Translations under genes and position numbers: made by a program
Notes under the pieces: generated by a model
What the model saw: the letters and a program-made list of their open reading frames with translations, nothing else
Database searches by the model: none
What the model was told of the DNA's origin: nothing
Assembly (NCBI RefSeq): GCF_900106035.1
Contig: NZ_FNUC01000004.1
Span: 3,135,722 to 3,199,721, forward strand
Length of the DNA: 64,000 nt
DNA from: Jiangella alba
Lineage (GTDB): Bacteria; Actinomycetota; Actinomycetes; Jiangellales; Jiangellaceae
Reading direction: 5' to 3'
Part shown: piece by piece, positions 53,736 to 56,700 of the stretch
Layout: every line of letters begins with the position of its first letter
How positions within the stretch are numbered: position 1 is the stretch's first letter

Positions 53736-56700
53736 CGCCGTCGCCCACCGGCTTCGTGCCGGGCGAGGGGACGCTGCCGCCGCGCGCCACGTTCGCCTCC
53801 GACGCGCCGGCGCTGTCCCTGAACGGCGCCTGGCGGTTCCGCTGGTCGCCCACGGTGCGCGCCACCGAGGGCTTCGAGGACCCGTCCTTCGACGACTCGG
53901 CGTGGGCGTTCCTGCCGGTCCCGTCGCACTGGCAGCTGCACGGGTACGGCGCGCCCTGGTACACGAACTCGCCGTACCCGTTCCCGATCGACCCGCCGCG
54001 GGTGCCGGACGAGAACCCGAGCGGCGAGTACCGGCTGACGTTCCGGGCGCCGTCCTGGGCCGGGCAGCGGGCGGTGCTGCGCTTCGACGGCGTCGACTCG
54101 TTCTTCACGGCCTGGCTGAACGGGCAGCGGCTCGGGTACGCGACCGGCAGCCGGCTGCCGTCGGAGTTCGACGTCACCGCTCACCTGCGGCCCGGCGCGG
54201 ACAACGTCCTGGCCGTGCGGGTGCACCAGTGGTCGGCCGGCAGCTACCTGGAGGACCAGGACATGTGGTGGCTGTCCGGGATCTTCCGCGACGTGACGTT
54301 GCTGGCGCGGCCCGCGGGCTCGGTCCACGACTTCACCGTTCATGCCGACTACGACGGTGAGACCGGCACGCTGCGGGTCGACGCGGACGGCGCCGCGCGG
54401 GTGCTGGTGCCGTCGCTCGGGGTCGACGCGGCGGCCGGCGAGGACGTCGCCGTCGGCCCGGTCGAGCCGTGGAGCGCCGAGTCGCCGCGGCTCTATGACG
54501 GCGAGCTGGTCACCGCGACGGAGCGGATCGCGCTGCGGATCGGCTTCCGCCGGGTCGCCGTCGAGAACGGGCTGCTCACCGTCAACGGGCGGCGGGTGCT
54601 GTTCCGCGGCGTCAACCGGCACGAGTTCCACCCCGACCGCGGCCGTGCGCTGACCCGTCAGGACATGCTCGACGACGTGCTGCTGATGAAGCGGCACAAC
54701 GTCAACGCCGTCCGGACCAGCCACTACCCGCCGCACCCGCACTTCCTCGACCTGTGCGACGAGTACGGGCTGTACGTCGTCGACGAGTGCGACCTCGAGA
54801 CGCACGGCTTCGGCTACGAGGACTGGCGCGGCAACCCCAGCGACGACGACCGGTGGCGGCCGGCCTACCTGGACCGCATGGCGCGGATGGTCGAGCGGGA
54901 CAAGAACCACCCCAGCGTCGTCATGTGGTCGCTCGGCAACGAGGCCGGTGCGGGCGCGAACCTCGCCGCCATCTACGCGTGGACGAAGGAGCGCGACCCG
55001 TCGCGGCCGGTGCACTACGAGGGCGACCCGTCCTGCTCGGACGTGTACAGCCGCATGTACGCGTCGCAGGCCGAGGTCGACGAGATCGGCCGCGGCGAGG
55101 GGAAGCCGTTCGTGCTGTGCGAGTACGCGCACGCGATGGGCAACGGGCCGGGCGGGCTGCGCGACTACCAGGACCTGTTCGAGCGCCACGAGCGCTGCCA
55201 GGGCGGCTTCGTCTGGGAGTGGATCGACCACGGCCTGCGCGCCCGCGACGCGTCCGGCCGCTCGTACTACGCGTACGGCGGCGACTTCGGCGAGACGTTC
55301 CACGGCGGCACCTTCGTCGCCGACGGGCTGGTGTTCCCGGACCGCACGCCGTCGCCGGGCCTCGTCGAGCTGAAGAAGGTGGTCGAGCCGCTGCGCCTCG
55401 GCGGCGGCTCCCGGCTCGTCGTCGAGAACCTGCACGAGGTGCTCGACACCAGCCGGTACGCGTTCCGGTGGACCCTGACCGACGACCGCGCCGAGGTGGC
55501 GGCGGGGACGCTGGCCGTGCCCGTCGTACCGGCCGGTGGGCGGACGGAGGTGGCGCTGCCGTCGCTGCCGCCCGTGGGCCCCGGCTCGGAGGCGGGCTCG
55601 GGCTCGGGCTCGGGCTCGGGGGAGCGGTGGCTGACGGTGAGCGCGGTGCTCGCCGAGGACGCGCCGTGGGCCGCAGCCGGGCACGAGGTGGCGTGGGGGC
55701 AGCTGCCGGTGGGCGCCGCGCCGTCGCCTGTCGTTCCGGTGGCGCCGGACGCCCGGCCGGTCCGCCTCGACCCCGACACCGGCCGGCTGGCCGGCCTGGG
55801 CGGGCTGGACGTGACCGGCGCGGCGCTCGACGTGTGGCGGGCGCCGATCGACAACGACGCCGGCGGGCTGGCCACGCTGGGCGCGACGTGGCGGACGCTC
55901 GGGCTGGACCGCCTGACGCACCGGCTCGACAACGTCCGCGCGTCCGGTTCCGCGCTGGTCGTGGACACGCGGGTGGCGCCGGCCGCCCGGGCGTTCGCGC
56001 TGCGCGCCGTGTACCGGTGGACGCCGGTCGCCGACGACGCCGTGCACCTGGCGCTGACGGTGACGCCCGAGGGTTCCTGGCCCGACGACGTGTGGTTGCC
56101 GCGCCTCGGTGTCGTGCTGGAGCTGCCGGCCCGCTACGACCGGGTGACGTGGTTCGGCCGCGGCCCGGGCGAGGCGTACCCGGACTCCCGCGAAGCGGCC
56201 CGCCTCGGCCGCTTCTCCCTCGGCGTCGACGAGTTGCAGACGCCGTACGTGTTCCCCCAGGAGAACGGCCACCGCGCCGACGTCCGCTCGGCGTTCGTCC
56301 ACGCCGCCGACGGCTCCGGCCTGGCTGTCGAGGGCTCCGGCCTCGCCGCCGACGGCTCGGGCCTGGCTGTCGAGGACTCGGGCCTCGCTGTCGAGGGCGA
56401 GGCCGACCTTTCGCGTGGTAGGTGTGACCCTCCCCGTTCGGGTGGGGGCTTGACCATGAGGGCGGGCACCGACAACGTCGGCGAGGACGAACCGGACGCA
56501 CACGCCGCCGGGTCCGCCCCGGCTGTCGCGGCGATGCCCGCCCCGGCTGTCGCGGCGATGCCCGGCCCGCCGGTGTTCGGCCTGACCGTCCGGCGCTGGA
56601 CGACCGCCGACCTCGAGGCGGCCCGGCACCATGCCGAGCTGCGTCCGCGCGACCGCGTGTACGTCACCCTTGACCTCGCCCAGCACGGCCTGGGCAGCGC

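Follow-up and report, generated by a model that had tools for sequence, protein, structure and literature searches.

The window analysed here, a stretch of 64,000 nucleotides from Jiangella alba (contig NZ_FNUC01000004.1, positions 3,135,722 to 3,199,721), carries a lacZ-type gene for a glycoside hydrolase family 2 (GH2) beta-galactosidase, in which a copy of a 57-bp palindromic repeat lies in frame, embedded in duplicated codons of the gene itself (Table 1). All five Pfam domains of the LacZ-type protein were found (Glyco_hydro_2_N, Glyco_hydro_2_N2, Glyco_hydro_2_C, LacZ_4 and Bgal_small_N), and over its 1019 residues it matches an NCBI protein, "glycoside hydrolase family 2 ... [Jiangella alba]" (P0001), with 100% identity; two contigs are on record for that protein. 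In the orthologue alignment the catalytic motifs NEAG and CEYAHAMGN are kept, and the reading frame is open throughout the 1019 codons, insert included, as a first-pass annotation made from the sequence letters had stated. To judge from the sequence, the enzyme is presumably active and the gene tolerates its insert.

Table 1. Features of the lacZ insert and copies of the repeat; positions are those of the window unless a sampled locus (L) is named
Feature	Position	Strand	Remarks
GH2 beta-galactosidase (LacZ-type) gene, Jiangella alba	53732..56791	+	1019 codons, uninterrupted; open reading frame (ORF) and translation
Native target codons, residues 857-868	56299..56335	+	First beta-strand of the hairpin; conserved in all Jiangella orthologues; strand 863-868 in the model
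Native GSGLAVE codons, three additional tandem copies of 21 bp	56336..56398	+	Tandem Repeats Finder (TRF); repeat families D1-D3; missing in orthologue DNA L001-L004
18-bp filler between target array and element (E-A-D-L-S-R)	56399..56416	+	No counterpart in orthologues or in the rest of the DNA sampled
Diverged 58-nt copy of the Jiangella 57-bp palindromic repeat	56417..56474	+	Both termini intact; left arm of hairpin 2 decayed; nhmmer E=3e-6
26-bp filler right of the element (N-V-G-E-D-E-P-D-A)	56475..56500	+	First 6 nt, ACGTCG, carry on the identity with the L005 copy (J. muralis)
Diverged direct duplicate of the native target	56501..56531	+	CACGCCGCCG--GG-TCCGCCCCGGCTGTCGCGG versus native CACGCCGCCGACGGCTCCGGCCTGGCTGTCGAGG; repeat families D2/D4
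24-bp x2.3 tandem array (PAVAAMP x2) on the duplicated target	56514..56569	+	TRF, 96% matches; orthologue alignment
Intergenic near-consensus copy	3527..3583	+	Between convergent genes
Intergenic variant copy	5696..5750	+	Right end seeds the 18-bp x12.3 array 5742-5963
Exporter copy, 100% consensus, J. alba	L012:11014-11070		
Exporter copy, 100% consensus, J. muralis	L011:3336-3392		
Exporter copies, 100% consensus, J. anatolica	L010:1313-1369 and 1538-1594		

Alignment with the orthologues fixed the boundaries of the insert at residues S869 and P946 (56336-56569). By direct count, 78 codons (234 bp) replace one ancestral Ala, a net gain of 77 codons; the extra segment of the first-pass annotation is therefore real, and its size, given there as roughly 85 codons, is corrected. 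Native sequence starts again at 56570 (P947 V948 F949). On the left side, TRF reported a 21-bp array of 4.3 copies at 56308-56398 (alternatively 42 bp x2.1, 93%), which had been read as four inserted units of (D)GSGLAVE; the array stands, except that its first GSGLAVE unit is the native sequence. On the right side, the 24-bp PAVAAM repeats were also recovered. They are not unrelated flanking DNA, being built on a duplicate of the native target whose local alignment score is 37, versus a maximum of 33 in 500 dinucleotide shuffles. The flanking micro-repeats do not belong to the element; to its left and right, they consist of host target codons that were amplified. Native codons, tandemly duplicated, account for about two thirds of the extra lacZ DNA, and the element is embedded in this tandem duplication of host codons, which is further expanded on both of its sides. 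A possible inverted copy of native lacZ right of the element (56293-56309 vs 56476-56492, 15/17 matches) was rejected, as it had a p of ~0.34 in a whole-region shuffle test, and no inverted template switching is therefore claimed.

The frame of this segment is kept open by the state of its element. Translated in the lacZ frame, the consensus element would run into a stop (CTC TAG); in the lacZ copy the loop is GTTC and there is one nucleotide more, so that the consensus TAG is gone and the copy is read in frame 1 and then in frame 3 without a stop. The two other forward frames of the insert contain stops. In the 32 codons of the foreign core (the 96 bp of filler and element at 56399-56494), GC content at third codon positions (GC3) is 75%, versus 96.6% in the whole gene, which fits a non-coding origin without amelioration.

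The insert is missing in five other Jiangella orthologues (J. muralis, J. alkaliphila, J. endophytica, J. aurantiaca and a metagenome-assembled genome, MAG; 84-88% identity in the alignment), and likewise in more distant actinomycete genera, where a single Ala stands in its place. In the orthologue DNA the empty site reads GTCGACGGCGCACCGGTGTTC (four orthologue loci, L001-L004, with conserved synteny). As the site is empty in all orthologues, parsimony puts the gain of the insert on the J. alba lineage; together with the genus-wide repeat family described below, this bears out the proposal that a repeat had invaded a coding sequence. At the orthologous locus of the MAG, ~630 bp of extra intergenic DNA follow lacZ (L004:12800-13427); in the other Jiangella genomes there is an overlap between the lacZ stop and the convergent gene downstream.

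An AlphaFold2 model of LacZ, based on a 56-sequence alignment, reached a predicted template modelling score (pTM) of 0.84, with a predicted local distance difference test (pLDDT) below 50 for residues 874-943 and confident flanks. This low-scoring stretch, predicted to be disordered, has strand 863-868 before it and strand 949-954 after it, and in HMMER the match to the Arthrobacter beta-galactosidase 1YQ2 (PDB) breaks exactly at the insert, which together place the loop at a beta-hairpin turn. The insert is probably a long, disordered surface loop of 78 residues at this turn in domain 5, in keeping with the surface loop first suggested. That the loop has been domesticated, as was also suggested, finds no backing: nothing indicates a function, and the GC3 of the foreign core is far from that of the gene. 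The same lacZ contains a second in-frame repeat insert at 55583-55620, of the (GGCTCG)n type, in a loop of the LacZ_4 domain; this one is J. alba-specific as well, missing from every aligned orthologue, and model pLDDT is low there (residues 619-628).

The element belongs to a repeat family with the consensus GGTAGGTATGACCCGCCCCTCTAGGGAGGGTGCCCACCCTACGGGCGGGCACCGACA (~72% GC). Aligned with each other, the copies at 3527-3583 (57 nt) and 56417-56474 (58 nt) are identical at both ends and vary in between. In the window, GGTAGGTRTGACCC matches only at 3527 and 56417, and GGGCGGGCACCGACA has exact matches only at 3569 and 56460, all on the plus strand, so that the shared termini noted in the first pass are confirmed. 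The right end of the lacZ element and the filler beyond it form a 21-nt exact match, GGGCGGGCACCGACAACGTCG, to the J. muralis copy in locus L005. A scan for the pattern GTAGGTNTGACC-N(20-50)-CGGGCACCGACA over 185,579 species genomes, which by its exactness is blind to diverged variants and whose counts leave out the J. alba genome, returned nine copies in seven loci, in Jiangella only (four in J. muralis, four in J. anatolica, one in J. endophytica). These nine copies are almost 100% identical to the consensus and their flanks are unrelated. A profile built from ten other copies matched the lacZ copy at E=3e-6 over about 150 kb, and apart from true copies there were no other matches of such strength in about 200 kb of Jiangella DNA. 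The same profile found a perfect consensus copy elsewhere in J. alba and, in the window, the variant at 5696-5750 and three partial relatives at ~11409-11749. We conclude that the element is a Jiangella-specific family of ~57-bp GC-rich palindromic interspersed repeats.

These matches also bear on a simpler explanation, in which the whole segment would be a local slippage or low-complexity expansion of lacZ codons, its resemblance to the intergenic element arising by chance in a genome of 72-75% GC. The large share of native codons in the extra DNA agrees with it, and the genome is rich in in-frame micro-repeats, such as lacZ 55583-55620 and a block at 22912-23085 in a DegV-like ORF. It does not account for 14-nt left and 21-nt right termini identical to those of family copies, for the strength and specificity of the profile match, or for the foreign codon usage of the 96-bp core, and we regard it as highly improbable.

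In the predicted fold of the consensus, a closing stem brings together two GC-rich mismatched hairpins, and the termini form an imperfect inverted repeat of ~7 nt (5 pairs). Most intergenic copies share one habitat: the window copy at 3527 and those of loci L006-L009 lie between convergent gene ends, and the one at 5696 between two same-strand genes. The genes beside the copies are housekeeping genes of unrelated kinds (GntR, MFS, LysR, epimerase, kinase, DNA ligase, GDPD and DUFs). This location downstream of convergent genes is one that a functional cis-element under selection might occupy, as an RNA 3'-end stabiliser or terminator or as a protein-binding DNA site, the lacZ copy being then recruited for regulation, for example as an internal processing or pausing site. 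The identity of the 57 nt is 100% across species, even at the orthologous exporter site described below, with diverging flanks, which also agrees with selection. The lacZ copy has, however, lost the left arm of the conserved hairpin 2 and folds no better than shuffled sequences (z of +0.3 as RNA and +0.6 as DNA). Rfam 15 gave 0 matches in the window at gathering thresholds, a permissive scan of a consensus copy reached best E-values of 2.9-8.9 only, and covariation was found for 0/18 pairs of the element fold, the copies showing too little variation. We therefore hold a role in regulation to be improbable.

A second in-frame case was found in a fused ATP-binding cassette (ABC) exporter, where the repeat occupies the linker between the transmembrane and nucleotide-binding domains (TMD-NBD) and is read in frame 2 as VGMTRPSREGAHPTGGHR. 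J. muralis, J. sp. DSM 45060, J. alba and J. anatolica (the last with two copies) have this peptide in intact form at one and the same place of the linker; in a MAG, J. endophytica and J. mangrovi it has decayed, and J. alkaliphila and Frankia lack it. The J. alkaliphila exporter DNA has a short linker from which the element is missing. The J. muralis exporter is annotated by NCBI as intact (WP_053202705.1). Beside the exporter genes lie another ABC gene and genes for a siderophore-interacting protein and an AraC regulator. As in lacZ, host codons are duplicated around the element: 72 bp of native codons beside it are present 2.1 times in J. muralis, and in J. anatolica the duplication takes in the element itself. 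An exhaustive HMMER search with the peptide, covering frame 2 and leaving out the reverse frames, returned from 1.84 billion representatives only the ABC exporter cluster and one spurious eukaryote-like repeat protein (P0241), from which we conclude that intact frame-2 intragenic copies are rare. Frankia ABC proteins ending in ...TGGHRG were considered as carriers of a related element and discarded, the DNA showing an overlap with the ribosome-binding site and start of the next gene.

The exporter also speaks to the quality of the assembly. Short-read assemblers may err at tandem repeats, and in so repeat-dense a region a repeat-induced mis-join or collapse could have produced the lacZ insert artificially. 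Such an error is hardly credible, given that the identical 1019-residue protein stands on two contigs, the longest of 3.7 Mb, that the insert has a length exactly divisible by three, stays open in no frame but that of lacZ and has perfectly collinear flanks, and that the J. alba exporter has a like in-frame copy on a different contig, found in other species too. A genome-wide propensity for repeat-encoded loops, as advanced in the first pass, is backed by this exporter copy and by the repeat-built DegV insert at 22912-23085, an in-frame block PGAGPGPGPGPGLGRESGFGAGGLGAPGVGLGERGGSGERGGSGERGGRAGGVGGVGV of 6/12-bp, 18-bp and 9-bp tandem repeats. The DegV block yielded no match to the 57-bp element.

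One proposal for the entry of the repeat into lacZ invokes a transposon. Insertion of a non-autonomous transposon, either of the repetitive extragenic palindromic (REP)/REPIN type or a MITE (miniature inverted-repeat transposable element), by a REP-associated tyrosine transposase (RAYT), another IS200-type Y1 enzyme or a DDE transposase, would leave the tandem repeats as later and independent events. The repeat has a GTAG head at positions 2-5, imperfect terminal inverted repeats and a location mainly between convergent genes, like GTAG REPs (PMC3733652); its copies are near-identical across species with unrelated flanks, as recent mobility predicts, and 57 nt is a multiple of three. Short target-site duplications were nevertheless found beside none of 11 copies, the lacZ and ABC copies sit in filler and duplicated target instead of being cleanly inserted, exact copies are few per genome, and Pfam revealed no transposase domain (no RAYT/Y1) in the ten genes flanking eight copies, a search that concerned the flanking genes only and not whole genomes. 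Taken together, these observations make a transposon doubtful.

GTAG/CGTC REPs are found in several phyla as GC-rich stem-loops, mostly downstream of unidirectional or convergent ORFs, and those lying in ORFs were proposed to fall in linkers and loops (Di Nocera et al. 2013, PMC3733652); in that survey Actinobacteria are mentioned 0 times. The Jiangella repeat resembles them in being a GC-rich stem-loop sequence with GTAG near one end, mostly extragenic and occasionally wholly inside ORFs. A canonical REP is a single hairpin of 20-40 bp with an unpaired GTAG abutting the stem, present in hundreds of copies and associated with a RAYT, whereas the Jiangella unit, with 56-57 bp, two hairpins and a closing stem, is no single palindrome and would be at best a fused dimer. 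Its GTAG, at the same positions in every copy, is separated from hairpin 1 by 6 nt, and in the predicted fold its partner is the 3' end. The exact pattern occurs 4, 4 and 1 times in the three genomes, diverged variants existing besides, and a cognate RAYT, which a REPtron would include, was not found among the ten genes flanking eight copies. The REP-like label of the first pass thus holds as a resemblance, with a seemingly low copy number and the lack of a RAYT in the flanking genes standing against it. MITEs (ERIC, BOX, Nezha, Correia/NEMIS) are non-autonomous, have terminal inverted repeats and can be read through when in genes (PMC10969869). Their terminal inverted repeats are of 15-30 bp, flanked by short target-site duplications, and they derive from identifiable insertion sequences (IS); the Jiangella repeat has ~7-nt imperfect termini and no such duplications. 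No IS was seen in the sampled Jiangella loci, the scan of the genome collection having been aimed at the element itself.

We consider it quite likely, instead, that a Jiangella repeat was copied into the lacZ hairpin turn within or together with a duplication of its target, and was tolerated there. In the order of events that we infer, one repeat copy and a few tens of bp of filler would have been copied into the beta-hairpin turn of domain 5 in the J. alba lineage, either by a template switch during replication or repair, or by insertion into a nascent duplication of the loop codons. Palindromic repeats such as REPs act as stall sites or points of joining from which tandem duplications arise next to them, the known cases being large chromosomal duplications between two REPs; here the duplications are of 21-72 bp, immediately beside a single element, and in frame. 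Hairpin-induced replication stalling or template switching, and not a transposase, may have yielded both the insertion and the duplications. Slippage, promoted by the local hairpins, would then have expanded the duplicated codons, in steps of 21 bp to the left of the element and of 24 bp to its right, and selection would have retained only a version open in the lacZ frame with a length multiple of three. As only such a version could persist, a copy without the consensus TAG and with a compensating 1-nt change is what this account leads one to expect.

Duplicated host codons surround the element in both intragenic cases, and tandem repeats lie near many of the copies. Arrays found by TRF (score >=50) lie within 150 bp of 8 of the 13 copies, versus a background of 13% in the same sequences (binomial, 5.6e-5), an enrichment that is uncontrolled for intergenic location or paired copies; the association of the element with neighbouring tandem repeats is accordingly suggestive. 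The window copy at 3527 is bracketed by a 36-bp x2.1 array upstream (3341-3416) and by CGCCGA x3.8 directly downstream (3589-3611).

Several further points weigh against the copying of a family member into a tolerant turn. Element stability is unexceptional (z of -1.2 to -1.8 as DNA), and covariation does not support the fold. The element has no clean boundaries in lacZ, fillers of 18 and 26 bp separating it from host sequence, and the lacZ copy is the most diverged member of the family, divergence before arrival and decay in place being indistinguishable. Copy number looks low as well, the exact pattern occurring no more than 4 times per genome in the three other species, and recent mobile-element activity is therefore not established. 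The first interpretation, of a repeat that invaded a gene, kept its frame and sits in a loop, was nonetheless largely right; "domesticated" and "REP" are not established.

A bolder reading is that the repeat represents an undescribed class of actinobacterial hairpin repeats that actively provokes local in-frame tandem duplication, its copies perhaps owing their identity between species to a dedicated single-strand DNA enzyme or to gene conversion, and not to descent. We think this rather unlikely. If true, a duplication-provoking element would build new disordered loops and linkers in proteins.

Other repeats of the window were recorded along with these copies. At 5696-5963, the variant copy, GGTAGGTGGACCCC...GGGCGGGCGCCGACA, merges into an 18-bp x12.3 array whose unit starts with the right end of the element, and copy and array occupy nearly all the space between two minus-strand genes. 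On the minus strand at 11409-11830, three partial relatives have the common core GGGAGGGCACCCACCCTACGGGCGGGCC, before which stands a perfect palindrome of 18 nt, CCCTCCCGGCCGGGAGGG; spaced by ~134-157 bp and alternating with tandem arrays of 26-bp and 20-bp units, they look like a second, related repeat family. The strongest tandem repeat of the window is a 93-bp x2.0 duplication at 29552-29740 (94% identity, TRF score 343).

The closest known behaviour is that of the Rickettsia palindromic elements (RPEs), short interspersed palindromes found in intergenic DNA and in frame in unrelated functional genes, where the peptide falls at positions compatible with the fold (PMC10969869; PMC3733652). 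In Jiangella, too, the same element lies in frame in unrelated intact genes, at surface or linker sites (the lacZ turn and the ABC linker). RPEs differ in that they are AT-rich and about 100-150 bp long, form ten families, have dozens of copies inside genes in each genome, and reside in an obligate intracellular alphaproteobacterium. The Jiangella repeat, of 57 bp and ~72% GC, belongs to a free-living soil actinomycete, and two intragenic sites were found, both with duplication of host codons. Set apart by composition, length and host, the two share behaviour only, and no sequence relationship is claimed. Literature searches found no description of such a repeat for Jiangella. The Jiangella case is a new instance, from an actinobacterium, of a known kind of event (RPE-like or intragenic REP insertion), with the duplication of host codons as its added feature.

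The lacZ insert offers a clear natural case of a non-coding palindromic repeat read as protein in a large and well-understood enzyme, with the exact empty site in sister species. Together with the ABC exporter, it extends RPE-like intragenic insertion to an actinomycete that is free-living and high in GC. It also draws attention to repeats able to confuse Jiangella assembly and annotation, and marks a permissive insertion site in domain 5 of GH2 beta-galactosidases. Finally, it links intragenic insertion to the duplication of adjacent host codons, one route to new loops and linkers.

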